Positions 2,839 through 53,127 of a stretch of 64,000 nt of DNA are shown here, in pieces. How positions within the stretch are numbered: the first letter of the stretch is position 1; the number at the start of each line of letters is the position of its first letter. Where the stretch lies: the NCBI GenBank assembly GCA_965366365.1, contig CBDUEV010000006.1, forward strand, positions 1,429 through 65,428, given 5' to 3'. Source of the DNA: an uncultured Acidimicrobiia bacterium (GTDB lineage: Bacteria; Actinomycetota; Acidimicrobiia; Spongiisociales; JAENVV01). The position numbers were made by a program, and so were the translations under genes. The notes under the pieces were generated by a model. The model was not told the origin of the DNA, searched no databases, and saw only the letters and a list, made by a program, of their open reading frames with translations.

Positions 2839-4422
2839 ACCGATCGCCCGCCTGATCTCTGCGGCCCAGCGACGTCTCACGATCATGCTGGCCGGTCACA
2901 CCTTCTTCTGGATCGTGGGCGTGGTGGCCGCCCTGGCCTCGATCCTGGCCGCACTGGCGCGCCGGATCGTCATCCCGTGGGCGGACCCGGCGATTGCCAT
3001 CGCCTTTGGTTTGGCGGTGGTGGGCGTCGCCGCCGTGGTGTGGCGGGAGCGACCCACACGGCTGACGGCATCCATCGAGCTCGACAACCGGCTCGACTCG
3101 AAGGACCGGATGACCACCGCCGTCGAGCGCCTCGCCTCGGGCGGCCCCCTCACCGATCTCGAGGCGCGCCAGGTGGAGAGCTCAACCGCCTGGGCCACCC
3201 AGCGATCGTTGGACGGATTCGGACCGCGGTTCCCGCATAGGACCCTTCCGTGGTTGACCATCCTGGCCGTCGCCTCGGTCCTGGTGCTCACCCTCTTTCC
3301 CTCGCCGGCCGACGCCGTCGCCGCGGAGAGAAGAGCCACTGCGGCCATCATCGAAGCCGAGGCCACGGCGCTCGAAGAGACCGCCGAGACCCTTCCGGAG
3401 GAGGTCGCCGAGCAGTTGCGAGCCATCGCCGAACGACTACGGGAGGCCCAGACGCTCGAGGCCGCGGTCTCCGAACTGGCCGAGGCGCGCCAAGAACTCG
3501 CCGAGACGGCCGATCCGACTGCCCTTCCCAAGAAGACTGCACTGGCCGGTCTCCAGCGTCGACTCGAACAGAACCCGCTGGCCGAGGGCGCTTCCCTGGC
3601 CGAGATGATTGCATCACTGGCGGCCAGCCTTCCCGGCGCCACCGAGGAGGAGCGGGCCGATCTGGCCCGCGAACTCGCCGAACGAGCTTCCGATTTCGCC
3701 GGGATCGACGAGGAGATGGCCACTCTGCTCGAACAGGCAGCCGCCACCATCCGTGTCGGGGAGGGGGCACAGCAACTCGAACAGCTAGCCGCGGCCGCCG
3801 CGGCGGCAGCCGCCGACGCCGCCGAGGGCGATGCCCGGACCAACGCCTCCGCGCGTGTCCGTGACGCACAGCGGGCCCTCTCGAACGCCCAGGCCGCCCA
3901 GTCGCAGGGCGCAGGAGCAGGCCAGGGGGAAGGCGAAGGCCAGGGACAAGGTCAGGGCCAAGGACAGGGACAAGGTGAGGGCGAAGGACAAGGTGAGGGC
4001 CAAGGACAAGGTCAGGGCCAAGGACAAGGTCAGGGACAGGGCGCCGGCGGGCAGGTGACGGGCGGCAACACCTCCGGTGGCGGAGGAAACGCCGGTGGGC
4101 CTGTCACCGGTGGCAGCGGAACCGGGGGACTCGGACGAGGCGGATTCGGTGACAACGACGCCCCGGAGAACCCGATGAGGGGCGAGATCGTCGACCCGTC
4201 CGCCGTCGCTTCCTCCGAGGAGGTGCGGGTCGACGTGAACGGAAACCTCTTGGGCGACACCGTCGGAACGGCCGAGGGGGCAGGGCTGCCCAACCTACCC
4301 ACCGTGCCGTACCAGGACCTCTTCACCGAATACCAGCAGGCGGCATTGGAATCGCTCGACGCGCTCTCCGTACCTCCTGCCCTCCGCCAGATCGTCAGCA
4401 ACTATTTCACGGAGTTGGAGCC

Positions 4423-23874: not shown

Positions 23875-24690
23875 ATGACAGCCCCCTCCCGCTACGCAAC
23901 CACCGCGTTGCTGGCCCTCGCCCTGTTGCTGGTCGGCTGTTCCGACAGCGCCACGACGACGTCGACCACGTCACCGACCACGCTCCCCTCGTCGACGACT
24001 TCCACGGAGGCGCCGACCACTACCGCTCCCTCGACCACCACCACCGCTCCCACCCCAACGACCACGAGCACGAGCACGAGCACGAGCATCGTCACGTCCA
24101 CTACCTTGCCTGGCGAGCCGATCGACATCGGGCCGGCGGCGGGAGACGAACTGGGCGTGATCGGGGTCGCCCACGACGACGTCCTCAACGTGAGGAAGGC
24201 GCCGGGAACCGACCAGCCGATTCTCACCACCCTGGCCCCGACTGCCGACGACGTCATCGCCATGGGTGCGGCGCGGCGACTCCCGTCGTCGATCTGGTAC
24301 CAAGTCACAGTCAACGGCACCACCGGGTGGGTGAACAGTTCCTACGTTGCCTACCTCGGAACCGTCGACGACGTGACGTCAGCCATCGTGGCCGGCCTAG
24401 GGGAAATCCCGACGGCCGACTCGATGCTGGCGCTCGGCACCCTGGTCGCCGAGGCGGTGAGCTCAGACGAGGATCCCATCTCGGTGATCACCGTGACCGT
24501 GGCGCCCACCGTCGGGGACCTGGGGGAGATCACCATGGACGTTGTCGGTCTGGGCGACGACTCGGTACGCGGGATCCGACTGCACATCTTCGGAACGCCC
24601 GACGGCACCGGCAAGAGCTTCTCCCTCGGGGCCGTCGAACAAACGGAGCTCTGTGGGCGAGGCGTCACATCTGAGGGTCTCTGCGTGTAG
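23875..24690 (+). CDS. secreted lipoprotein with Thr/Ser/Pro-rich linker and bacterial SH3 domain
   Basis: Lipobox LLVGC, T/S/P linker of ~60 aa, SH3b-like VLNVRKAPGTDQPILTTLA..WYQVTVNGTTGWVNSSYV. Confidence 0.65.
   Translation: MTAPSRYATTALLALALLLVGCSDSATTTSTTSPTTLPSSTTSTEAPTTTAPSTTTTAPTPTTTSTSTSTSIVTSTTLPGEPIDIGPAAGDELGVIGVAHDDVLNVRKAPGTDQPILTTLAPTADDVIAMGAARRLPSSIWYQVTVNGTTGWVNSSYVAYLGTVDDVTSAIVAGLGEIPTADSMLALGTLVAEAVSSDEDPISVITVTVAPTVGDLGEITMDVVGLGDDSVRGIRLHIFGTPDGTGKSFSLGAVEQTELCGRGVTSEGLCV
24064..24087 (+). repeat. (ACGAGC)4 hexanucleotide microsatellite encoding TSTSTSTS in the lipoprotein linker
   Basis: Four perfect units. Confidence 0.7.
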
Positions 24691-32852: not shown

Positions 32853-34418
32853 TCAGGAACCCGCCAGCGGGGCGAGGCCCAGCTCGGGGATGGCCGGAAT
32901 CGGGTTTTCGTAGAGCCACGCGTCGAAGAAGTCCTGCAGTGATCGACCCGACACCTCTTCGGCCAGCGCGACGAACTCCTCGGTGCTGGTGTTGCCGTAG
33001 GCAAAGCGTTTGGCGTATGTCTGGAGGATCTCGAAGAAGGCCTCGTCCCCCACCTCCAACCGAAGGGCGTGCAGCGTCAATCCGCCTCGCTTGTAGACGG
33101 ACGCGTTGAAGAGATCGTCGCGATGCGGGGCTCCGGGCGGCGGGAAGGCCGCCTCGGCCAGCTCGGCAGCCGCCGCATCGGTGTCGACCTGATCCGTGAA
33201 GGCCTGGCCGCTCATCACCGCGTACCAGCGGGCGATCTCCGCGTCGCGAGCTGCAGGGCCGGAGGTGTGCTCCTGCCAGAGCCACTCCGCGTATGTGGCG
33301 AAGCCCTCGTTGAGCCAGATGTCCTTCCACTCGGTCAGGCTCACGCTGTTCCCGAACCACTGATGGGCCAGTTCGTGAACCACCACGGCGTCTCCCAGGC
33401 TCAGCACCTGGCTCCCGAAGGTGGACAGCGTTTGGGTCTCGAGGGCTGCCCCCAGATCCTCGGTTTCGAGCACCAGCGCGCCGTAGGAGTCGAAGGGGTA
33501 CGGCCCGAAGATCTCGGACAGGTACCCGAGCATCTCCGATTGCCGAGCAAAGATCTCGGCGACTCCGGTGAGGTCGTCGTCGAAGTAGTTGCGGATGACG
33601 ACCCCGGCGGGACCCACCTCGTCGAAGCGCTCGAAGTCGCCCACAGCCATCGTGAGGAGGTACGAAGCGAGCGGCTGATTCGCCTCCCACACGTAGGTGA
33701 TGAGGTCTTCGTCCTCCAACTGTTGGGCGAGAAGCCCGCTGGAGGCGACCACGAAGGGCCGCGGGACGGTCACCGACACTCCGTAGGTGGCTTTGTCCAA
33801 GGGGTGGTCGTTGGCCGGGAACCAGGAGGAGGCGCCGGCTGGTTCGCTGAGGGCGAAATAACCATCGACCGACGGCAAAAAGCCGGTCTGGAACGGAGCC
33901 GCCTCCGTGAAGAACGGCACGGGCTTGCCGCCGTAGGCGATCACCATCTCAAACGTCTCGCCCGCCTCGACCGGCTCAGGGGGATCGATCCGCAGCTCTG
34001 GCTCGACATGGTCGAAGGCCGCAGCAACACCGTCGACCATGACGGTCTTGACGGTCATCGTGGAGAGGTCCACCGACCAACTGTCGAGGTCGTCCGTGGC
34101 GACGGCCTGGAGGGTGGCCACTCCGTCGATCCGCGGGCGGGCGGGGTCGATCCGGAGTTCGAGTTCGACGTGTTGCACGTCATAGCCGGCGTTGCCGAGT
34201 TCGGGGTAGTAGTCGTCGCCCAGCCCGTCGGCGGCGTCGATCCCGCCTGCCACGATGGGCGCAGTCGTGGCGGGAATCGCGCGACTGCTCGGGACGGTGG
34301 TCGAGGTGGTCGACGCGGCGCTGCTAGTGCCCGAACAGGCGGTCACCCCGAGGGCGAGAGCGAGCACGAGCGCCGGCAGACGCCGCCGAGCGCCTTTCTG
34401 GCGCAGCTCAGTCTTCAT
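32853..34418 (-). CDS. secreted M1 family zinc aminopeptidase
   Basis: HEXXH-x18-E: VVHELAHQWFGNSVSLTEWKDIWLNEGFATY; signal peptide plus lipobox-like VTACSG. Confidence 0.8.
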   Translation of the reverse strand: MKTELRQKGARRRLPALVLALALGVTACSGTSSAASTTSTTVPSSRAIPATTAPIVAGGIDAADGLGDDYYPELGNAGYDVQHVELELRIDPARPRIDGVATLQAVATDDLDSWSVDLSTMTVKTVMVDGVAAAFDHVEPELRIDPPEPVEAGETFEMVIAYGGKPVPFFTEAAPFQTGFLPSVDGYFALSEPAGASSWFPANDHPLDKATYGVSVTVPRPFVVASSGLLAQQLEDEDLITYVWEANQPLASYLLTMAVGDFERFDEVGPAGVVIRNYFDDDLTGVAEIFARQSEMLGYLSEIFGPYPFDSYGALVLETEDLGAALETQTLSTFGSQVLSLGDAVVVHELAHQWFGNSVSLTEWKDIWLNEGFATYAEWLWQEHTSGPAARDAEIARWYAVMSGQAFTDQVDTDAAAAELAEAAFPPPGAPHRDDLFNASVYKRGGLTLHALRLEVGDEAFFEILQTYAKRFAYGNTSTEEFVALAEEVSGRSLQDFFDAWLYENPIPAIPELGLAPLAGS

Positions 34419-35790
34419 CGTGGTCCTTCATCCACGCCCGAACGAGTTCGAACGCCTCCTCTGTGGAGTAGGGGCCTTCGTCGATGCGGTGTTCCAGCAA
34501 CATCTTCATGATCTCTCCCACCATGGGTCCGGGCGACAGACCGAATTCGGACATGACGTCGTTGCCGTCGATGGGAGGCCGAAGTTTGGCGATCTCCTCC
34601 TGCTGGGACAGCACCTCGATGCGATCCTCCAATTCGTCGATGCGGCGCTGGATGGCGTCGGCCCGTTTGGCGTTCCCCGTGGTGACGTCGCATCGAACCA
34701 ACTCGTTCAGGTCGGCGAGGAGGGGGCCGGCGTCGCGGGCATAGCGACGCACCGCAGAGTCGGTCCAGCCCATCTTGAACGTATGCGGGCGCAAATGCAG
34801 GAAGACGAGCCGGCTGACGTCATCCACCATCTCCTTGGGGTACCGCAGCGCCTTGAGTCGTTCACGGGCCATCCGGGCGCCAACCACTTCGTGGTGGTGG
34901 AATGACACCCCTCCCTTGCCGAAATGGCGGGTGGCCGGCTTTCCGATGTCATGGAGGAGGGCGGCCAAACGCAGCCGCAACGTCGGCTGGGTCTTCTCCA
35001 CAACGGCCAGCGTGTGCTCCCACACGTCCTTGTGGCGGTGGAGCGGATCGCGCTGTTCGCGCAGGTCGACCAGCTCCGGCAGGAACGAGGCGGCGAGCCC
35101 GCTGTCCACGATCCCGCGTAGGCCGCGGGCGGGGTGTTCGGTGACGAGGAGCTTGGACAACTCGTCTCGAGTCCGTTCGGCCGAGACGATTTCCAGACGA
35201 TCGGCCATGTCTCGGACCGCCTGCACGGCGGCGGGATCGGGTTCGAAGTCGAGGGCCGAGACGAACCGATACAGTCGCATCATCCGCAACGGGTCGTCCG
35301 AGAAGGCGACCTCGGGGGCCAGGGGGGTTCGGAGCTCGCGTCGACCGAGGTCCTCCAGGCCGCCGAACGGGTCGACGAGTTCGAGCTTGGGGAGCGGCAG
35401 CGCCATGGCGTTGATCGTGAAATCGCGGCGCGAAAGGTCGGTTTCGATGTCGTCCGAGAAGCTCACCTCAGGCTTCCGGCTGTGGTCGCGGTAGATCTCG
35501 TTTCGGAACGTCGTGATCTCGTAGAGGTGACCGTCTGCCCTCATGCCGATGGTCCCGAACCGCTCCCCCATCGTGAACACCGCGTCGGCGATCGGCGCGA
35601 TCACCCGCTTGATGTCGGCGGGATGGGCGTCGGTCGAGAAGTCGAGGTCGTCGGCGGGACGACCCAGCAGGGCGTCACGCACCGATCCACCAACCAGAAA
35701 GAGCTGGAATCCGGCGTCGGCGAACCGCTCGGCGAGACGAGCCGGCGGGGCGTCGGCCGCGACCAACCAGGCGAGACGTTCGGGAACCAT
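34408..35790 (-). CDS. cca: CCA tRNA nucleotidyltransferase / poly(A) polymerase with HD domain
   Basis: FLVGGSVRDALLG..DLDF pol-beta NTase motif, HD domain LLHDIGK; start placed at MVPERLAW (Met25 of the track ORF). Confidence 0.75.
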   Translation of the reverse strand: MVPERLAWLVAADAPPARLAERFADAGFQLFLVGGSVRDALLGRPADDLDFSTDAHPADIKRVIAPIADAVFTMGERFGTIGMRADGHLYEITTFRNEIYRDHSRKPEVSFSDDIETDLSRRDFTINAMALPLPKLELVDPFGGLEDLGRRELRTPLAPEVAFSDDPLRMMRLYRFVSALDFEPDPAAVQAVRDMADRLEIVSAERTRDELSKLLVTEHPARGLRGIVDSGLAASFLPELVDLREQRDPLHRHKDVWEHTLAVVEKTQPTLRLRLAALLHDIGKPATRHFGKGGVSFHHHEVVGARMARERLKALRYPKEMVDDVSRLVFLHLRPHTFKMGWTDSAVRRYARDAGPLLADLNELVRCDVTTGNAKRADAIQRRIDELEDRIEVLSQQEEIAKLRPPIDGNDVMSEFGLSPGPMVGEIMKMLLEHRIDEGPYSTEEAFELVRAWMKDHDED

Positions 35791-35896
35791 GGCGCCAGGA
35801 TAAAGCCCCCGACGCGTCCGCGAACCGAAGGACGGATGATCGCCCCCCTTGGGGCCGCCCACCGCCCCGCCGGCGCCTTCTCGAGGCCAAGTCTGG

Positions 35897-35948
35897 AACC
35901 CAGTCGGTGAACCCAGTCGGTGAACCCAGTCGGTGAATCCAGTCGGGC
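35897..35948. repeat. 13-bp tandem direct repeat x4 (GAACCCAGTCGGT x3 plus a degenerate copy) in the cca/dinB divergent promoter region
   Basis: Three perfect units and one 11/13 unit with no spacers; non-coding. Confidence 0.8.
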
Positions 35949-36014
35949 AACACAGGCAACACTGCCTCGGCGCTCCGCCGGGAGCGGGCTTCCACGCCGG
36001 AGTAGGCTCGCCGG

Positions 36015-36512
36015 ATGAACCTGCTCCTGGAATTCTTCCGACACAACAGCATGATGAACGAGCGTCTCGTCGATGCCTGCCGGCCGCTCACACCTTCCCA
36101 GCTCGAGGTCGAGGTGGCCGGAACGTATGGGAACATCGGAGCCAGCCTCGTCCACATCGCCAACGCGCAGGTTGGGTATGCGGCTCGGCTGCTCGGCCTC
36201 GAGCGGAATCCGCCCTTGCCGGAGAGCCCGTTTCCGGGTTTCGAGAGCCTCAACGCGCAGTTCGCGGTCGGGAACCGTCAACTCCTGGAGGCTGCTGCCC
36301 ATCCAGACATGGAGCGCCAGGTCGAGGTGTCCGGCGATGACCCGGCCGGGGTATGGAGGATGCCGGCGGCGCTCATCCTGATCCAGGCCGTCAATCATGG
36401 GACCGACCACCGATCACACGTAGCCACCATCCTCACTCAGCTCGGAGTGGAACCGCCGGAGATGGATGGCTGGACGTACTTCGAGGACGCCGGCCACATG
36501 GCCGAGGTCTGA
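36015..36512 (+). CDS. DinB/YfiT-like metal-dependent hydrolase family protein
   Basis: DinB_2 pattern with His ligands (LVHIANAQ, VNHGTDHRSH). Confidence 0.65.
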   Translation: MNLLLEFFRHNSMMNERLVDACRPLTPSQLEVEVAGTYGNIGASLVHIANAQVGYAARLLGLERNPPLPESPFPGFESLNAQFAVGNRQLLEAAAHPDMERQVEVSGDDPAGVWRMPAALILIQAVNHGTDHRSHVATILTQLGVEPPEMDGWTYFEDAGHMAEV

Positions 36513-36549
36513 GTCACCGCGGCAACGCGGAGAACGGCGGCGCCGTGCT

Positions 36550-37686: not shown

Positions 37687-38724
37687 TTAACCGATCTCCC
37701 AGAACCGACCCGCGCTTTTTGCCGCGAGGTCGACGATGCGCCAGGCGCCCGGTTGCGACTGGACGGGCAGGTGATCGGAGGGGGCCTCCCCCATGGCTCC
37801 GTCGATGGTGGCGGTCACCGACGTCCTGATCGCCGCCAGGTCATAGCCGCCCTCCAGAAAGAACAAGGTCCGCTTGGCGGGAACCAAGCCCTTGAGTCGG
37901 TACGCCATCGACTGATAGTCGCCTGCTCGCAGCATCCCGTCGGCCAGAGGGTCCTCTTCCCGGGCGTCGTATCCGGCGCTCACCAGAATCCAGTCGGGTT
38001 CGAACTGTCGCAGAACCGGCTCCACCACACGGTCGAAGGCAGCCAGGTAAGCGTCACCACCGGTGTAGGCAGGGAAGGGTATGTTCAGGGTGGTTCCCTC
38101 GCCGGGGCCGTACCCGGTTTCGTCCAGCCAGCCGCTCCCGGGGTAGAACGGGTATTGATGGGTCGAGATGTAGAGCACCCTCCCATCGGCGTTGAAGAGA
38201 TCCTGCGTCCCGTTCCCGTGGTGAACGTCCCAATCGACGATGGCTACCCGATTGCCCAGCTCTGCCAGCATCTGGGCGGTGACCGCCACGTTGTTGAACA
38301 GGCAGAAGCCCATCGCCTGACTCTCGAGGGCGTGATGTCCCGGGGGGCGGACCGCCAGGAAAGCCATCTCGGCGACCCCCTCCATGAGGGCGGCAACCGC
38401 TTGCGGCCCGGCGCCGGCCGCCCTGATCGCCGCCTCCCACGAGCGAGCATTGGCGTAGGTGTCGCCATCCAGGTGCCCTCCCCCCGCTGCGCAGAATCGC
38501 TCGATCGCCGTCTGATACTCGACCGGGTGGACCGCCGCGAGCAGTTCCCGATCGACCTCTTCCGCCTCGAGTTCGATGAGAGGAGCTTTGGCGTTGCGGG
38601 CTCCTTCGACGGCCGCGGGCACTCGTTCGGGCCGCTCCGGGTGCCAGTCCTCGTGCATGTGGAGGAGAAAGGCCGGGTGACTGATCAGCAACGCACGCAT
38701 GGCTCCACTCTGGCACACGACCAC
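37687..38724 (-). CDS. histone deacetylase superfamily protein (AcuC/AphA-like)
   Basis: DWDVHHGNGTQ, zinc ligands D..H..D, GGGY motif (FLEGGYD). Confidence 0.8.
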   Translation of the reverse strand: MVVCQSGAMRALLISHPAFLLHMHEDWHPERPERVPAAVEGARNAKAPLIELEAEEVDRELLAAVHPVEYQTAIERFCAAGGGHLDGDTYANARSWEAAIRAAGAGPQAVAALMEGVAEMAFLAVRPPGHHALESQAMGFCLFNNVAVTAQMLAELGNRVAIVDWDVHHGNGTQDLFNADGRVLYISTHQYPFYPGSGWLDETGYGPGEGTTLNIPFPAYTGGDAYLAAFDRVVEPVLRQFEPDWILVSAGYDAREEDPLADGMLRAGDYQSMAYRLKGLVPAKRTLFFLEGGYDLAAIRTSVTATIDGAMGEAPSDHLPVQSQPGAWRIVDLAAKSAGRFWEIG

Positions 38725-38732
38725 CGGCGAGT

Positions 38733-39509
38733 GTGCCTCTCAAAGCCCGTAAAGTGGCGCTACCTCAACGCGGAGCCGTGGTGAACCTCATTGTGCGTGG
38801 AACGTGGCCGGGTCCAATGGTCCTCAGACAGGGCTGGGCGAAGGCCAACGTCCGTCCCTGGAACGACGACATACCCGACGCCCACCTCCGGCTCGTCAGG
38901 GGAAGCGAGAGCTTCGTGCGCTCGTGCGCCGAGGCTGTCAGAGAAGCCGGCGCCGGCGGCGTGATCTCTCCCCCGGTCGCGGAGACCGGGACGGGCCTCT
39001 GGAATCGAGCTGGTTTTCGCCCGTATCTGTCTCTCGACCTCTACACCCGTGATCTCTTCCAGCCGCTCGAGGAGCCTGCCCATCCGGTCGAGAAGGAGAG
39101 CCCCGGCGACTGGAGCGGTCCCGTTGCCATCGACCGGGCCTCCTTCGAACCGATCTGGCGGCTGGGGGGTCTCGGCCTTCGCGAAGCCAAGGATGCCACT
39201 CCCCGCAGCGCCTTCCTCTGCTCGAGGCAGCCCGACGGGACGATGGTCGGTTTCGCCGTCGTGGGCGCCGGTAGTGCCGTTGCCTACCTCCAGCGTGTCG
39301 CCGTTCATCCGGATCATCGAGGAGCCGGATACGGGCGGAGTCTGGTTCGCGCCGCCTTGCGCTGGGGGCGCAACCACGGCGGAAGGACGATGCTCCTCAA
39401 CACCCAGCGCGACAACTGGGCAGCTGCCGTTCTCTATCAGTCGGAGGGTTTCGAGCGCATGCCCTCGGTCCTCGAGGTGCTCCGCTTTGGGGATCCGCCA
39501 CTAACGTGA
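38733..39509 (+). CDS. GNAT family N-acetyltransferase
   Basis: C-terminal acetyl-CoA motif VAVHPDHRGAGYGRSLV; start uncertain. Confidence 0.55.
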   Translation: MPLKARKVALPQRGAVVNLIVRGTWPGPMVLRQGWAKANVRPWNDDIPDAHLRLVRGSESFVRSCAEAVREAGAGGVISPPVAETGTGLWNRAGFRPYLSLDLYTRDLFQPLEEPAHPVEKESPGDWSGPVAIDRASFEPIWRLGGLGLREAKDATPRSAFLCSRQPDGTMVGFAVVGAGSAVAYLQRVAVHPDHRGAGYGRSLVRAALRWGRNHGGRTMLLNTQRDNWAAAVLYQSEGFERMPSVLEVLRFGDPPLT

Positions 39510-40849
39510 GTCCTCATCTGGGGAGGGATCCGTTGCCGCCAGCTCTACCCGACCGTTACCAACTCGAAGTTCGCCTCGGCCGCGACGGCGACGTCGAGGA
39601 ATGGTTGGCGATGGATACCGCCCTGGACAGGCCGGTCCTGGTCCGGGCTCTCGGACCGGAAGCCGGTCCGGAGCGCTCCGAGCAGTTCCTGGAGGCGGTC
39701 AGGGGCGCCGCTCAGGTTTCGCATATCCACTTGGCCGCCATCTACACGGCCGCTCACTTGGAGGATTCGACGTACTCGATCTCGGAGTGGGTGGGAGGCA
39801 TGACCCTCGCCGACCGCACCGCCGCCCGCGAGCCGATACCTCCTGAGGAGTTCGTTCCGAATGCCGCCGGACTGGCCGAAGCATTGGCCGTCCTCCACGC
39901 CGCCGGCCAAATCCACGGGGCAATCGACGCCCGGGCCATATTCTTCTCGGCCGCCCACCCCGCCAAGCTGGCGGCTTTCGGCCGCCCTCCCGTGACTCGA
40001 TACGCCAGCAACGACGTCGAGGCTCTGGCCACCACGCTCGAACGAACCCTGACCGGTGGCGAGCCCGGGAACGTGCCACCGTCGCAGGTGGTGGATCGCC
40101 TGTCCCCGATCGTGGACGGAGCCTTGTCCGAAGCCCGCACCGGCATGTTCGATGCCGGCGCTCTCGCCAGCGCTCTCCACACGGCTCCCACCCCCAACAT
40201 GGCGGCCGCTCCCGCCGGAGAGGGCTGGAACTGGAAGTGGTTGGCGCCCGCGGCGTTTCTGGCTCTCGTCGCCATCGTGCTCACCGCCATCGGAGTTTCC
40301 TTGGTCGACGACGGCGGAAGGGCGGCGGCTGTTCCGACCCCCACCACGAGCCCTTCCCCCACGCCTCCCCCCGTGTCCTCGCCACCTTCGGAGAGCGAGC
40401 CCCCCCAGACGTCCGACGGCCCGCCGGTCACGGTGGTCAGGGCTTTCTCCTTCGACCCCACCGGCGATGGGGAGGAGCACGAGGAACTGGCCGCGGCTGC
40501 GATCGACGGGGACTTCGCGACGAGTTGGAAGACCGAGAGCTACCTCGATCCCCTTCCTCTTCAGAAGGCGGGCGTGGGACTCGCCGTCGAAGTCGACGGC
40601 TCGCCGAGCGGCGTCGATATCACGGGGATTCGCAATGGAACGGTGTGGGAGCTGCGGTGGAGCCCGGCGGCGGCCGCCGCTTTGGCGGACTGGACGGGTG
40701 TGGCAGAGGGAACCGTTCGAGATGGCCAGCTCTCCGCCGACCTCCCTGAGCAGGCCGGTGGAGTTTGGCTCATCTGGTTCACGGACCTTCCCGCCGACAA
40801 CGAAGGTACCTACAACTCCACGGTGGCAGAAGTACGATTCCGGCCATGA
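39506..40849 (+). CDS. protein-kinase-like (pseudokinase) domain - TM - extracytoplasmic beta-rich domain protein; homologous in architecture to the C-terminal half of mycobacterial MviN
   Basis: N-terminal ~230 aa kinase-like fold lacking the Gly-loop, VAIK Lys, HRD and DFG; one TM (WLAPAAFLALVAIVLTAIGV); Pro/Ser/Thr linker; C-terminal ~150 aa domain (FDPTGDGEE..SWKTESY..GVWLIWFTDLP). It sits immediately upstream of the ECF sigma. Confidence 0.6.
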   Translation: MSPHLGRDPLPPALPDRYQLEVRLGRDGDVEEWLAMDTALDRPVLVRALGPEAGPERSEQFLEAVRGAAQVSHIHLAAIYTAAHLEDSTYSISEWVGGMTLADRTAAREPIPPEEFVPNAAGLAEALAVLHAAGQIHGAIDARAIFFSAAHPAKLAAFGRPPVTRYASNDVEALATTLERTLTGGEPGNVPPSQVVDRLSPIVDGALSEARTGMFDAGALASALHTAPTPNMAAAPAGEGWNWKWLAPAAFLALVAIVLTAIGVSLVDDGGRAAAVPTPTTSPSPTPPPVSSPPSESEPPQTSDGPPVTVVRAFSFDPTGDGEEHEELAAAAIDGDFATSWKTESYLDPLPLQKAGVGLAVEVDGSPSGVDITGIRNGTVWELRWSPAAAAALADWTGVAEGTVRDGQLSADLPEQAGGVWLIWFTDLPADNEGTYNSTVAEVRFRP

Positions 40850-41427
40850 CCGCAAGTCGCGCCTCCGAAGATCGCGTTTTGGTGGATCGCTATCTCTCCG
40901 GGGACAGAGACGCGTTCGATCGGCTCATGGCTGCACACGAAGACCGCGTGTTCTCCGTGTGCCTGCGCGTCATGCGGGACCGCGAGGCGGCACTCGACGC
41001 CGTTCAGGAGACCTTCATCACGGTCTTTCGCAAGGCCCACATGTACAACGGTCAATCCGCTTTCTCCACCTGGCTGTACCGCGTGGCGGTCAACACGTGC
41101 TACGACCAGCTGCGAAAGGCGAAACGCCGGCGCACGGAACCGATTCCCGACGGTCGCGACCCGGCCGACCCGACGGTCGAGGACGAACTCACCGCCGTCG
41201 AACTCCGACCCGACCTCCAGGCTGCGCTCGCCACGCTCTCGGACGAGTTTCGCGACGCGGTCGTCCTGAGCGACCTCGAGGGGCTCCCCCTCTCCGAGGT
41301 CGGCGAGATACTGGGCGTACCGGTCGGGACCGTGAAATCCCGGGTCTTTCGGGGCCGGCGCCTGCTCGCCGATCAACTGAGGAACCTTCAGGCCAACCCG
41401 CAACGTCAGAGTGACGAAGATGCATAG
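40846..41427 (+). CDS. ECF RNA polymerase sigma factor (SigM-like by position)
   Basis: Sigma-70 region 2 (FDRLMAAHEDRVFSVCLRVMRD..AVQETFITVF) and region 4 (LSDEFRDAVVLSDLEGLPLSEVGEILGVPVGTVKSRVFRGR); ATGA overlap with the upstream gene. Confidence 0.85.
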   Translation: MTASRASEDRVLVDRYLSGDRDAFDRLMAAHEDRVFSVCLRVMRDREAALDAVQETFITVFRKAHMYNGQSAFSTWLYRVAVNTCYDQLRKAKRRRTEPIPDGRDPADPTVEDELTAVELRPDLQAALATLSDEFRDAVVLSDLEGLPLSEVGEILGVPVGTVKSRVFRGRRLLADQLRNLQANPQRQSDEDA

Positions 41428-47316: not shown

Positions 47317-47367
47317 CGGGCGATGATAGCCAGCCGGAGCCGAAATCCGGTGTCCGCCATGTGTTTC

Positions 47368-47381
47368 GTTTCACGTGAAAC
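47368..47381. promoter_or_regulatory. parS centromere site 1 (GTTTCACGTGAAAC, perfect palindrome)
   Basis: 14/14 match to the core of the parS consensus tGTTTCACGTGAAACa; lies in the rsmG-parA-parB promoter region. Confidence 0.8.
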
Positions 47382-47403
47382 CTCAACCGAGCGTCTAGCC
47401 AGC

Positions 47404-47417
47404 GTTTCACGTGAAAC
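47404..47417. promoter_or_regulatory. parS centromere site 2 (GTTTCACGTGAAAC)
   Basis: Identical second copy 36 bp from the first. Confidence 0.8.
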
Positions 47418-47424
47418 GCGAGAA

Positions 47425-49180: not shown

Positions 49181-49455
49181 CAGCCGACGGCTCCGTCGAG
49201 TTCCGTCACCGGAGCGTCACCGGTCGGGACCGGGTCGTACCCACCTTCATGCCAGGGATGGCACCGTGCCAAGCGCCGGCTTCCCATGAATACGCCCCTG
49301 ATCACACCGAATCTCCCGATCGCTTCGTACGTGTATCGGGAGCACGTGGGTTCGTATCGGCAGTTCTTACCCAACGACGGCGATACCAGATTCTGGTAGG
49401 CCTTGATCAAGCCGCGGGCCAGTCGTGCCGGCGGAGCAACTCTCGTTTCAGGCAT
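49180..49455 (-). CDS. yidD: membrane protein insertion efficiency factor YidD
   Basis: [31 protein letters not shown] motif. Start set at Met16 of the track ORF to avoid a 53-nt overlap with rnpA. Confidence 0.75.
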
Positions 49456-49819
49456 TTCCAGCTTCTTCCATATCGGTGTTTCCGCCCAGGCCCTGTTCAA
49501 CCCACCTCAGAAGGGCGGGAAAGGGTGCGGTGACCACACTCTTCGACGCAATCATTACGTAATCCTTGCCTCGAGGCAGGCCCACTTCTCGAACGGCCTC
49601 ACGCAGTCTTCGCTTGGCCCGGTTGCGAGCCACCGCATTGCCCACCTTCTTGGTGGTGACGATTCCCACGCGGCCGGTCTCGGAATCTGCAGGTGCCTCG
49701 ATCACCAAGAGGCCCCCTGACCTACGACGGGCTCCCATCTTGAAAACCCGCTGAAAGTCGCTGTTGGCACGAAGAAATCCGACGTCGCTACGCGGCGAGG
49801 CGCTGCCGACCTTTGTCAC
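49448..49819 (-). CDS. rnpA: ribonuclease P protein component
   Basis: Conserved [13 protein letters not shown]-terminal motif and basic RNR-like region [10 protein letters not shown]. The ATG start overlaps the rpmH 3' end by ~32 nt; no alternative start codon precedes the conserved motif. Confidence 0.8.
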
Positions 49820-49922
49820 GACGGCGCTTGAGGGTGGCCCGACCGGCTCGGGTCCGCATTTTCGAACGAAAGCCGTGCTTACGCTTGCGACGGCGCGTGT
49901 TTGGTTGATAGGTCCGCTTCAT
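49788..49922 (-). CDS. rpmH: 50S ribosomal protein L34
   Basis: [44 protein letters not shown], 44 aa, near-universal sequence. Confidence 0.9.
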
Positions 49923-50383
49923 CGGAACTCCTAGGAGGAACGAGGTGGGCAGAAGATTACGAATGGGGGTGGGCAATGTCAAAGCCGTCGAGGACGAAAA
50001 GCCAAATCCCCATCGTGTAATTCGCCGGTCGAACCGGTGTCGCGGGCTCCAGGCTGCTGGCTCCCGTCACCTGGGGTATTTATAGAGTCACGGCAAGTGA
50101 AGACAGCTAGGCCGCGAAGAAAAGCTCTATCCCGCGAAAAGTGGCCTAGGCGCCTGACGGGTCCTTCCCGAGCCGGGACGCGAAAACCTACCCTAGAAAA
50201 ACCAGTCCCGACGTGGCCTTTCGCGGTCTCGACCGGTACCGTCGGGCTCGGCAGAGTGCCTTTTTCTCGTTCTTGAAGCCGCCAGCTTCCTCGACCTACA
50301 CTCCCAACGCCGCACCAGGTGAGTCGGCTCTCTCGCTTCCCCCTGACGACCTGGACGCGTGCACCCGGCTATGGAGCTGGGAG

Positions 50384-50416
50384 CTTTCCACATGATGTGG
50401 ATATACCTGTGGAAAA
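50384..50416. promoter_or_regulatory. cluster of three DnaA boxes upstream of dnaA
   Basis: CTTTCCACA (50384-92), TGTGGATAT (50396-04) and TGTGGAAAA (50408-16) are 8/9-type matches to TT(A/T)TCCACA in alternating orientation; an SD sequence AGGAGG follows before the GTG start. Confidence 0.65.
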
Positions 50417-50441
50417 CAAGAAAGAGGTCTAGGAGGGCCCT

Positions 50442-51848
50442 GTGACGCAAGTGACTGCAACCGAGTGGGAACTCTTCCGTGACACGGTTCGATCCAAAGT
50501 CACGGACGTCACCTGGCAGAACTGGCTGGCAGCCCTCCAAACAGAGGGCACCGAGGACAACGTACTCCACCTCACGGCCCCGAGCGACTTCCATCTTCGG
50601 TGGGTGTTCGACAAACACCTCGAGGTGCTCGAAGCGTCGGCTCGCTCGGTGTACGGCTCCGACATCGTCATCGATCTGTCCATGAACCCGGACCACGAGA
50701 TCCCCGCAACTCCGGCGGCCGACCTGGAACCAACCGCTGGGCAACCGGCCGGCCGGCAACCGGTTGGCGAACCTCCGCGGCTACATCAGCTGCCTCCCCG
50801 CGAGTTGGATGATCAGCCGGAAGCCAGCCGGCTCCTGGCCCGGTACACCTTCGACCATTTCGTCGTTGGTTCCTCCAACCAGTTTGCCCACGCGGCCGCA
50901 ATGGCCGTAGCGGAACAGCCGGGCCGCCACTACAACCCCCTGTTCATCTACGGCGCCGCCGGATTGGGGAAGACCCACCTGCTGCACGCTGTCGGGCATC
51001 ACTCCATCGAGCTGAACCCCCGCTGTGTCGTGCGCTACGTCAGCTCGGAGAATTTCTTCAATCAATTCATCAACGGCATCCGCCGGAAGAAGATGGACGA
51101 GTTCAAGACCCGCTATCGAACCACCGATGTGCTCCTGCTCGACGATGTTCAGTTTTTCGAAGGGAAGGAGCAGATCCTCGAGGAGTTCTTCCATACCTTC
51201 AACAGCCTGTACGAGTCGGGCAAACAGATGGTGATCAGTTCGGACCGTCACCCCCGCAACCTCGCCTCACTCGAGGACCGCCTCAGGAGCCGCTTCGAAT
51301 GGGGTCTTCTCACTGACATCCAACCGCCGGATGTGGAGACTCGCCTGGCCATCCTCAGGAAGAACACCGACAGGGTCCGACAGCAGTTTCCCGAGGATGT
51401 GCTCCGGTTCATCGCCGAGAACGTCCACGACAACATCCGCGAACTCGAGGGCGCCCTCACCCGCGTGACGGCCTATTCGACCCTCACCGCCAGCGCCATC
51501 GACCTCGCCATGGCCCAGCAAGTGCTGGCTGACCTGGTACCCAATTCTGCGTCGCGTCCCCTCACCCCGGAAGACATCCTGAGAACGACGGCCGCCAAAT
51601 TCGGCTTTGCGGTAGAGGACGTCACCGGGCCGAGCCGTCGAGCACCCCTGGTCCTGGCCCGGCAGATCGCCATGTACCAATGCCGGGAACTGACCAGCTT
51701 GTCTCTGCCTCGAATCGGAGCCCTGTTCGGAGGGCGTGATCACACGACCGTCATGTACGCCATCGGCAAGGTCAAGTCACGCATGGAGACCGATCCGGAC
51801 GTCTTCGAGAGTGTGAACAAGTTGTCCCAGGAGCTGAGGAGAACATGA
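50442..51848 (+). CDS. dnaA: chromosomal replication initiator protein DnaA
   Basis: AAA+ Walker A GAAGLGKTHLL, DnaA signature and C-terminal DNA-binding helix; GTG start. Confidence 0.92.
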   Translation: MTQVTATEWELFRDTVRSKVTDVTWQNWLAALQTEGTEDNVLHLTAPSDFHLRWVFDKHLEVLEASARSVYGSDIVIDLSMNPDHEIPATPAADLEPTAGQPAGRQPVGEPPRLHQLPPRELDDQPEASRLLARYTFDHFVVGSSNQFAHAAAMAVAEQPGRHYNPLFIYGAAGLGKTHLLHAVGHHSIELNPRCVVRYVSSENFFNQFINGIRRKKMDEFKTRYRTTDVLLLDDVQFFEGKEQILEEFFHTFNSLYESGKQMVISSDRHPRNLASLEDRLRSRFEWGLLTDIQPPDVETRLAILRKNTDRVRQQFPEDVLRFIAENVHDNIRELEGALTRVTAYSTLTASAIDLAMAQQVLADLVPNSASRPLTPEDILRTTAAKFGFAVEDVTGPSRRAPLVLARQIAMYQCRELTSLSLPRIGALFGGRDHTTVMYAIGKVKSRMETDPDVFESVNKLSQELRRT

Positions 51849-52038
51849 CGCTTATCCCCATCCATCCCCATCCAGATTCTGGGTGGCGCGAAGAACTGGG
51901 CGATTCTCCCCACCCCCTGTTGAGAGAGAAAGTACGCTGACCAGGCACTTCGTTGAGTTTTCCACTTTCCACAACCCCTAATACTGTTACTACCGGTTTA
52001 AACAGAAGAACAGAAAGAGAAGAAGGGCTGGCCAACCT
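51849..52038. other. candidate oriC (dnaA-dnaN intergenic: DnaA boxes plus AT-rich unwinding region)
   Basis: TTATCCCCA (51852-60), TTTTCCACT (51958-66), TTTCCACAA (51966-74), followed by a 46-bp AT-rich tract, taatactgttactaccggtttaaacagaagaacagaaagagaagaa, in a ~70% GC genome. Confidence 0.6.
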
Positions 52039-53127
52039 GTGAAGATCCGAGCCGAACGAGATGATCTGGCGGACGTGTTCGACCGCGCCAACCGTGGCGT
52101 GGGTCTCCGGTCAGCGCTACCGATTCTGACGGGAGTGCTGTGCGAGGTGACGGGTAACACCCTTCGGGTCACCGGGACAGACCTCGAGATCACCGTCCGC
52201 ACCACGACCGAGGTCGATGTGCTGGACGAGGGGAGGGTCGTCATCCCCGCCAAGCTGACAGCCAGCGCCATCAGGAAGATGCCGGTTGGGGCGGTCACCC
52301 TGGAATCCAGCGAGGGGGAGTTCCAGATCCTCGGGGGAGGACCGAAGTTCACCGTGCGGGAACTCCCCGTGGATGACTTCCCTCAGGTGCCCGCCGTGGA
52401 TCTCGATGGATCCGTGGACATCAACGGCCAGGACCTCACAGAGGCGATCGCCCAGGTGACGATCGCCGCCTCCGGCGACGCCGCCCGTCCCATCCTCACC
52501 GGGGTGCTCATCGAAAACGACGACCAGGGGCTGCGTCTCGTGGCCACAGACAGCTACCGGCTGGCGGTTCGCACCCTGGCAGGCGTTTCGGTGCCAACGA
52601 CGGGGCTGGTGCCGGCGCGGGGCCTGCGAGAGCTCGGCAAGACCATCGGCTCGGCCAAGGTCCAAGTGGCGATCCCGTCGCGTGAAGCGGTCTTCGCCTC
52701 TGATCGCGGCGTGCTCACCCTGCGGCTCATCGAGGGCAATTTCCCGAACTACCGCCAACTCCTTCCCGAGAGCTACCCGAATCGCATGATCGTGAAGAAG
52801 GAGGCTCTCCTGGAGGCCCTGGGCCGCGCCTCGCTGGTGGCCGAAGATCACATCCCCGTTCGGTTGAGATTGTCCGAGGGGGGCGTCGAGGTGACTGTGA
52901 CCCGGCAGGACGTCGGAGCCGAGGCCGAACACATTCCCGGTGAATACTCGGGGGAGGCCGACGAGGTGCTCATCGCTTTCAACCCCAAATACCTCGCCGA
53001 CGGGGTGGGAGTGATCGACGCCGAAGAGATCGAAATTCAGGTGATCGATGGCCTCAAGCCCAGCGTGATCCGCGGAGTGGGCAAGGATGAGTTTCTCTAC
53101 CTGTTGATGCCGGTTCGCGTGGCGTGA
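52039..53127 (+). CDS. dnaN: DNA polymerase III subunit beta (sliding clamp)
   Basis: Three-domain beta clamp, 362 aa, GTG start; conserved position after dnaA. Confidence 0.9.
   Translation: MKIRAERDDLADVFDRANRGVGLRSALPILTGVLCEVTGNTLRVTGTDLEITVRTTTEVDVLDEGRVVIPAKLTASAIRKMPVGAVTLESSEGEFQILGGGPKFTVRELPVDDFPQVPAVDLDGSVDINGQDLTEAIAQVTIAASGDAARPILTGVLIENDDQGLRLVATDSYRLAVRTLAGVSVPTTGLVPARGLRELGKTIGSAKVQVAIPSREAVFASDRGVLTLRLIEGNFPNYRQLLPESYPNRMIVKKEALLEALGRASLVAEDHIPVRLRLSEGGVEVTVTRQDVGAEAEHIPGEYSGEADEVLIAFNPKYLADGVGVIDAEEIEIQVIDGLKPSVIRGVGKDEFLYLLMPVRVA

Follow-up and report, generated by a model that had tools for sequence, protein, structure and literature searches.

The 64-kb stretch of DNA analysed here (referred to below as the window) carries a short array of 13-bp direct repeats in the spacer between two divergently oriented genes, cca on the minus strand and a DinB-family gene on the plus strand. 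These gene assignments, made already in the preliminary description of the locus, are confirmed by the PolyA_pol and HD domains in the product of the former and by the PF05163 domain in the product of the latter. The other neighbours are pilT, a deacetylase gene and an M1 peptidase gene, and the best named relatives of cca, as well as of the sigma factor gene considered below, belong to Acidimicrobiia MAGs. We place the start of cca at the ATG at 35790 because the gene is called with a length of 460 aa in 15 assemblies, its homologues comprise 459–462 aa, and the -10 box upstream of this codon is conserved. With this start the cca–DinB spacer occupies 224 bp (35791–36014), and the gap of 150 bp proposed earlier has to be abandoned since it assumed the GTG at 35862 to be the cca start. 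The features of the locus and those of the chromosomal origin region, which lies in the same window, are collected in Table 1.

Table 1. Features of the repeat locus and of the chromosomal origin region (positions are those of the window)
Feature	Position	Strand	Basis or remark
cca, CCA-adding tRNA nucleotidyltransferase, 460 aa, PolyA_pol + HD	34408–35790	-	Gene calls, homologue lengths
Predicted cca -10 hexamer, TATCCT	35797–35802	-	6 nt before ATG 35790; the only minus-strand TANNNT in the spacer
Degenerate left-edge unit, GAGGCCAAGTCTG	35883–35895	+	Same register as the array units (69% over 26 nt)
Three perfect 13-bp units, GAACCCAGTCGGT (expanding/contracting part)	35896–35934	+	Two of these units are missing in L008/L056 and L010
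Fourth unit, GAATCCAGTCGGG	35935–35947	+	Position 35938 is C/T polymorphic in the population
Predicted DinB -10 hexamer, TAGGCT	36003–36008	+	6 nt before ATG 36015; the only plus-strand TANNNT in the spacer
DinB-family gene, PF05163, 165 aa	36015–36512	+	Pfam, gene calls
parS sites (two), CGTTTCACGTGAAAC	47367 and 47403 (47367–47418)		
DnaA-box-like sequences	~50387–50416		Just upstream of dnaA
dnaA	50442–51848		Pfam and synteny
dnaN	52039–53127		Pfam and synteny

Direct reading of the array gives three copies of the perfect unit, which follow one another head-to-tail with no mismatch, and then the variant fourth unit. Tandem Repeats Finder delimits the array at 35896–35946 (period 13, 3.9 copies, 97% matches, score 95) and ranks it as the strongest non-coding tandem array in the 64-kb window; three perfect head-to-tail 13-mers cannot be expected by chance in a sequence of this length. 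The repeat reported earlier, three perfect copies followed by a variant, is thus real, although its placement at 35897–35948 was one base too far to the right. The units abut directly, with no unique spacers between them, which agrees with the earlier statement that the array is not CRISPR-like. Two other tandem repeats of the window are coding: the one at 3919–4042 encodes GQ/GE dipeptide repeats in a 533-aa protein, and the one at 24016–24088 encodes a Thr/Ser/Pro-rich linker in a lipoprotein-like ORF.

The perfect core is bordered on the left by the degenerate unit listed in Table 1 and on the right by another degenerate copy, GCAACACAGGCAAC, revealed by the repeat search, and a core that is perfect while its margins have decayed is what slippage arrays usually show. 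The array is non-coding, as its unit length is not divisible by three and no ORFs other than antisense artefacts cover it. The dinucleotide TA is absent from it on direct reading, and therefore a -10 box cannot come from the array at any copy number. The surrounding spacer is GC-rich. No inverted repeats were detected in the array by the repeat search, and its single-strand fold is no better than that of shuffled controls (z +0.9). At the gathering threshold no Rfam family was recorded in the whole 64-kb window, and no tRNA or tmRNA was found. Two copies of GCAACAC, 9 bp apart, adjoin the right end of the array (35947–35962; GCAACACAG GCAACACTG), and beyond them there is a small inverted repeat, GCTCC-GCCG-GGAGC (about 35972–35985). 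In several DinB homologues (L012 and L017–L019) GGCGCTCC likewise precedes the -10 box by a short distance, but it is nearer the -10 there.

The position of the array relative to the promoters of the two genes may be considered in the light of what is known for Actinobacteria, in which promoters are marked chiefly by TANNNT centred 7–12 bp upstream of the start site, a -35 consensus is absent, and leaderless mRNAs are common (PMC3898074). In the cca–DinB spacer, each strand has a single TANNNT hexamer, and the two are arranged in the same manner, with 6 nt between the hexamer and the start codon of the gene that it faces: TAGGCT-CGCCGG-ATG for DinB and TATCCT-GGCGCC-ATG for cca. A TANNNT starts 11–14 nt before the start codon in all 22 loci of DinB homologues (L011–L032, other Acidimicrobiia MAGs) and stands 6–8 nt ahead of that codon, which predicts leaderless transcripts there too, and the cca hexamer is conserved in L033, L034, L035/L036 and L060, whose cca genes are 76–91% identical. 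We therefore predict that cca and DinB are served by two back-to-back promoters, both of which would be leaderless. A promoter and terminator consensus scan of 35500–36300 returned nothing, the E. coli-type consensus being uninformative in this taxon.

The array occupies positions -68 to -119 from the DinB start and -106 to -157 from the cca start, and it is located outside both predicted core promoters. The earlier suggestion that a change of repeat number alters promoter spacing should be revised accordingly: the distance between -35 and -10 is not concerned, since the array precedes either predicted start site by 68 bp or more, and what copy number changes is only the distance between the two divergent promoters. 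For the same reason the array does not resemble a contingency locus, in which the tract is situated between -35 and -10 or in a reading frame.

To follow the repeat within the species, we used 15 independent metagenome assemblies of this same species (ERZ25043432-63), retrieved by an exact-protein look-up. Thirteen of them carry four units and the remaining two carry two units (the alleles L008/L056 and L010); a 3-unit allele was not encountered among these 15 assemblies, which form a small sample. In this way the comparison of repeat number between strains, recommended in the preliminary description, reveals a variable locus, and the presence of 2- and 4-unit alleles among strains of one species supports the proposal that it is a slippage hotspot. 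The variation is not restricted to the number of units: the fourth unit has GAACCC in place of GAATCC in L002, L005, L008, L055 and L059, an additional T precedes the array in some haplotypes, and the spacer is polymorphic at no fewer than four other SNP positions.

Since the SNP/indel backgrounds of the two short alleles differ, contraction (or expansion) must have happened at least twice. The L010 allele (coverage 14.8x) possesses junction 20-mers that are absent from the 4-unit allele, and hence it does not result from a collapse of the assembly (de Bruijn) graph at k of 21 or more. The 2-unit allele of L008/L056 (coverage 4.8x) could represent an assembly collapse at k = 21.

In the sister species (L033) the gene order is the same as in the window, and the identities of the encoded proteins are 91% for cca, 98% for pilT and 82–86% for the deacetylase, GNAT and M1 peptidase genes. 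The cca–DinB spacer of the sister species is about 130 bp long, and the array is absent there. The first 22 nt ahead of the cca ATG can be aligned between the two sequences, and alignment resumes at the DinB -10 box, whereas the 190 bp between these aligned ends are unalignable. Judging from this alignment, the visible constraint in the spacer is limited to the two core promoters. The contigs of the sister species (ERZ25039508 contig_*) contain fusions and splits of the frameshift type (L033 4001–5863; L060 1585–4673): cca is present as a 620-aa fusion, argC and the M1 peptidase gene are split, and the start codon of the sister DinB reads ACG. These frameshifts of L033 and L060, as well as the ACG start, are probably long-read errors, and single-base details of these contigs need caution.

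We suggest, with a probability of about 0.65, that the array is a young and probably neutral minisatellite (VNTR), residing between two divergent, apparently leaderless promoters in a spacer that evolves fast and seems to be free of constraint. The features by which such loci are recognised are all observed here, namely at least two near-identical head-to-tail units, a number of units that varies among strains, and the absence of conservation at the orthologous position in the sister species. Identical 13-bp units would misalign during replication by slipped-strand mispairing, or else in the course of unequal recombination, and such misalignment would add or remove whole units, leaving two or four of them in different strains of the same species. 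The only consequence of a gain or loss would be an altered length of the DNA between the promoters, by 13 bp per unit, so that the 2- and 4-unit alleles would differ by 26 bp, or about 2.5 helical turns. Most likely, the array has no dedicated function, as far as can be judged from sequence comparison.

However, a related tandem repeat in the sister species hints at more than random slippage. At L033 3835–3875 (minus strand), between the stop codons of DinB and pilT, there is a 14-bp tandem, GGCCCAGAGTGGT GAACCCAGAGCGGT GAACC-AGTGTGG (in short, GGTGAACCCAGAGC GGTGAACC-AG), which is on the same strand as the window array and opens with the same GGCC(A/C)AG edge variant as the left-edge unit. 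Among all loci it is the best match to the window array (score 34 versus 26 or less), with z of 8.7 against shuffles and the top rank in 506 cross-comparisons; in the reverse test, the 64 kb contain no match to the sister unit that comes near the window array (44 versus 25). Being reciprocal best matches, the two arrays are related. It follows that the motif predates the split of the species and underwent amplification twice. The two arrays are located on opposite sides of DinB. In three further relatives, L034, L060 and L063, pilT is directly followed by cca at a distance of 63–100 bp, both DinB and the motif are absent, and the array has no significant homology to these cca–pilT spacers.

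These observations draw attention to DinB. The DinB proteins of the window and of the sister species are 67.7% identical, against 82–98% for the neighbouring genes. DinBs of other lineages reach 72% identity to the sister DinB, and the two genes do not form a pair of closest relatives. Outside the species itself, no DinB homologue with an identity above 69% is present among 5.8 billion proteins. At the 22 Acidimicrobiia loci the gene located upstream of the DinB homologue differs in nearly every genome, as if DinB travelled with its own minimal promoter. The cca–pilT spacer (window 35813–36549) is thus a hotspot at which DinB is gained or replaced, and the lineage in which this happened is also the one in which the repeat arose. 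The repeat may represent ancestral spacer DNA flanked by two independent insertions, a by-product of allele replacement, or a part of the DinB mover itself.

It could be supposed on these grounds that the repeat is a remnant or a hotspot of the recombination that inserted or exchanged DinB in the cca–pilT spacer, that is, an att-like or cassette-associated junction amplified later by slippage. This supposition agrees with the co-occurrence of DinB and the motif in the species and its sister and their joint absence from the spacers of L034, L060 and L063, with the low identity of the two DinBs compared with their neighbours, with the changing upstream neighbours of the homologues, and with the location of the related repeats on opposite sides of the gene. 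Nevertheless, we consider it quite unlikely, since no recombinase or integrase is encoded nearby, DinB occurs at the 22 other loci with neither the motif nor flanking direct repeats above background, and each DinB is accompanied by one clear motif copy rather than by one on each side. We are equally doubtful about the wider proposal that the GGTGAACCCAG-type repeat either is tied to DinB turnover, as the recombination or insertion junction at which promoter-carrying DinB genes are exchanged, or acts as a copy-number "rheostat" kept beside DinB. If the link to DinB turnover is real, Actinomycetota would possess a so far undescribed mode of transfer for small modules of a single gene.

The reading of the array as a minisatellite is in accordance with the distribution of the motif outside the spacer. 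With up to two mismatches allowed, the 13-mer has four matches outside the array in the 64 kb, which is in line with shuffled sequences, and no non-coding copy was detected elsewhere in the window. The only exact extra copy, that of the fourth unit at 37986–37998, lies inside the deacetylase gene on the minus strand, where it forms part of the codons for FEPDWIL, and we regard it as a chance match. The 11-mer core GGTGAACCCAG is absent from L011–L032, L034–L036 and L060–L064 (about 250 kb of related loci), the site in the sister species being the exception. A search for further copies had been proposed earlier as a way to recognise a dispersed, REP-like element, and neither the window nor these related loci contain dispersed copies, so that an element of this type is not supported within these sequences. 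A REP-like unit in the form of a palindromic hairpin is also rejected, given the lack of inverted repeats and the ordinary folding of the array. The scan of JGI metagenomes for two adjacent cores yielded 14 matches, all in unrelated contexts and compositions. True arrays of 13–14 bp with the GGTGAACCCAG core are present at L040 344–385 (three copies of GGTGAACCCAGCC, about 27 nt before an ATG), L044 2960–3010, L047 7130–7200 and L050 8060–8130, and these were judged to be independent coincidences, expected in a very large collection.

Initially the array had been called "iteron-like", and the window does contain the chromosomal origin region, with yidC, jag and the stretch at about 49200–53127, as deduced from synteny with relatives and from Pfam domains. 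In the yidC–dnaA gap (about 49.2–50.4 kb) rnpA and rpmH are expected by synteny, and oriC lies between rpmH and dnaA (about 49.9–50.4 kb), 14 kb away from the array; the G+C content of about 0.605 across 48–52 kb is the lowest in the window. This distance of about 14 kb and the direct-repeat layout are all that would speak for iterons of a replication origin or for sites of a partition or replication protein. The unit of 13 bp (about 1.24 helical turns) is GC-rich, there is neither an AT-rich unwinding element nor a Rep gene among the neighbours (cca, DinB, pilT, the deacetylase and M1 peptidase genes), and the sister species has no such motif at the corresponding place. The array has no DnaA box and does not resemble parS; similarity to plasmids and matches in viral contigs were not found, and the phage matches are chance matches of 24 nt that all fall outside the array. 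The iteron or origin function is thus effectively refuted.

A second group of functional explanations involves regulators of transcription. According to the first of them, a protein that recognises the repeat sequence would bind the units and activate or repress DinB and/or cca from upstream, and copy number would tune either the occupancy or the phasing of the bound protein relative to the promoters, as a rheostat comparable to the promoter-distal repeat tracts of pathogens. The distance of the array from the DinB start is one at which activators of the class-I type can work. An imperfect palindrome (ACCcAgTcGGT) is contained in each unit, and GGT-GA-ACC is formed where two units meet; both elements could provide half-sites for a dimeric DNA-binding protein, as candidates suggested by the sequence. 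A related tandem is kept beside DinB in the sister species, and distal repeat tracts are known to modulate the promoters of nadA (PMC2791445) and sabA (PMC4081817). However, the sister tandem is placed downstream of DinB between convergent genes and not upstream of a promoter, and the motif is absent upstream of the 22 DinB homologues and upstream of cca in L033–L036, L060 and L063.

The spacing of the units is also unfavourable for such a function. In the preliminary description, a 13-bp period was taken as typical of an operator that binds its regulator cooperatively, but with about 1.24 helical turns per unit the successive sites are rotated by about 86 degrees relative to one another. No initiator or regulator gene is adjacent to the array, even the sister species lacks the motif at this position, and the only other copy in the 64 kb is the coding coincidence at 37986. 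In view of these data, the interpretation as a cooperative operator is not supported, and regulator binding in general seems to us unlikely.

The second explanation of this group treats adjacent units as promoters of the ECF sigma type (GAAC-N16-GTC), stacked in front of DinB and read, perhaps, by a SigM-like sigma factor. GAAC and GTC do recur with a 16-nt spacing across the unit junctions, the -35 element of ECF promoters is GGAAC-like with a conserved AAC (PMC1540707), and a SigM-like ECF gene is present at 40846–41427, 4.8 kb away. Yet the resemblance was noticed post hoc and rests on 7 bases, and all the DinB homologues use TANNNT of the SigA type. The only other intergenic-looking GGTGAACC (38780) belongs to the coding start region of the GNAT gene and is conserved in four relatives, and the remaining match to the pattern (62495) falls inside a gene. 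We consider this explanation very improbable. An autoregulatory ECF/SigM promoter is rejected as well, because the apparent -35 box upstream of the sigM operon at 38780 proved to be the GTG start of GNAT, which encodes MNL-x-V/I-R-G-T-W-P-G in alignment with four relatives. The GNAT acetyltransferase is called from the ATG at 38817 (230 aa); the GTG at 38781 (MNLIVRGTWPG...) is conserved as coding and is preceded by GGAG 6 nt upstream, which suggests that the true protein probably has 242 aa.

Two further promoter or operator elements were also tried and rejected. Each unit contains AGTCGGTG, which coincides in 7 of 8 bases with the PafBC/RecA-NDp box, the consensus of which we take to be TGTCGGTG-N8-TANNNT. 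There is no TANNNT 8 nt downstream of AGTCGGTG, the array is not among the matches with up to two mismatches, and the DinB homologues are devoid of the box. The family of these PafBC-dependent (RecA-independent) promoters has been described previously (PMC6789036). Similarly, the unit does not fit the LexA box (GAAC-N4-GTTC).

Returning to the minisatellite, its biological weight is small unless the repeat proves functional. The locus can be used as a strain marker, since the number of units (2 versus 4) and the linked SNPs make it possible to track this lineage across metagenomes; it should be kept in mind that short-read assemblies can mis-size arrays of this kind. The analysis is also of use for the gene models of the region: cca and DinB appear to be leaderless, and GNAT starts 12 codons earlier than called.

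Among the known systems, the closest parallels may be sought in the mycobacterial MIRU-VNTR and ETR loci, which are used for strain typing and in which the MIRUs measure about 40–100 bp. The array shares with them the intergenic head-to-tail arrangement, the location on an actinobacterial chromosome, the strain-variable number of units, the degenerate edges and a presumed origin by slippage or unequal recombination. In contrast to MIRU-VNTR, its unit has only 13 bp, it represents a single locus and not a dispersed family, and it does not belong to a transcribed operon junction.

Plasmid and phage iterons usually have 17–22 bp, are often spaced by about two helical turns, and sit by a rep gene and an AT-rich region with which they are conserved as a replicon. 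The likeness is confined to several direct repeats of the same orientation in non-coding DNA, and the array lacks the 17–22-bp unit, the two-turn spacing, the rep gene and the AT-rich region. The similarity to ECF promoters (GGAAC at -35 and a GTC/CGT-type -10) consists of the GAAC-N16-GTC pattern across each junction, a match of 7 bases only; a supporting autoregulated promoter was looked for and not found, the similar sequence at 38780 is coding, and the DinB homologues use TANNNT.

Another comparison is offered by tracts that are located distally to a promoter and tune expression, such as the TAAA tract that precedes nadA in Neisseria meningitidis (PMC2791445) and the sabA T-tract of Helicobacter pylori (PMC4081817). 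As in these cases, a slippage-prone array is situated upstream of a core promoter and not between -35 and -10, and the number of units shifts the spacing and phasing of the distal DNA relative to the promoter. The nadA and sabA tracts differ in having 1–4-bp units, NadR/IHF sites or contacts with the alpha subunit of RNA polymerase, and measured effects on expression, whereas the array has a 13-bp unit and is flanked by a spacer that is not conserved. Set beside all these systems, the array proves real yet unremarkable, a further example of the short tandem repeats that are already familiar.
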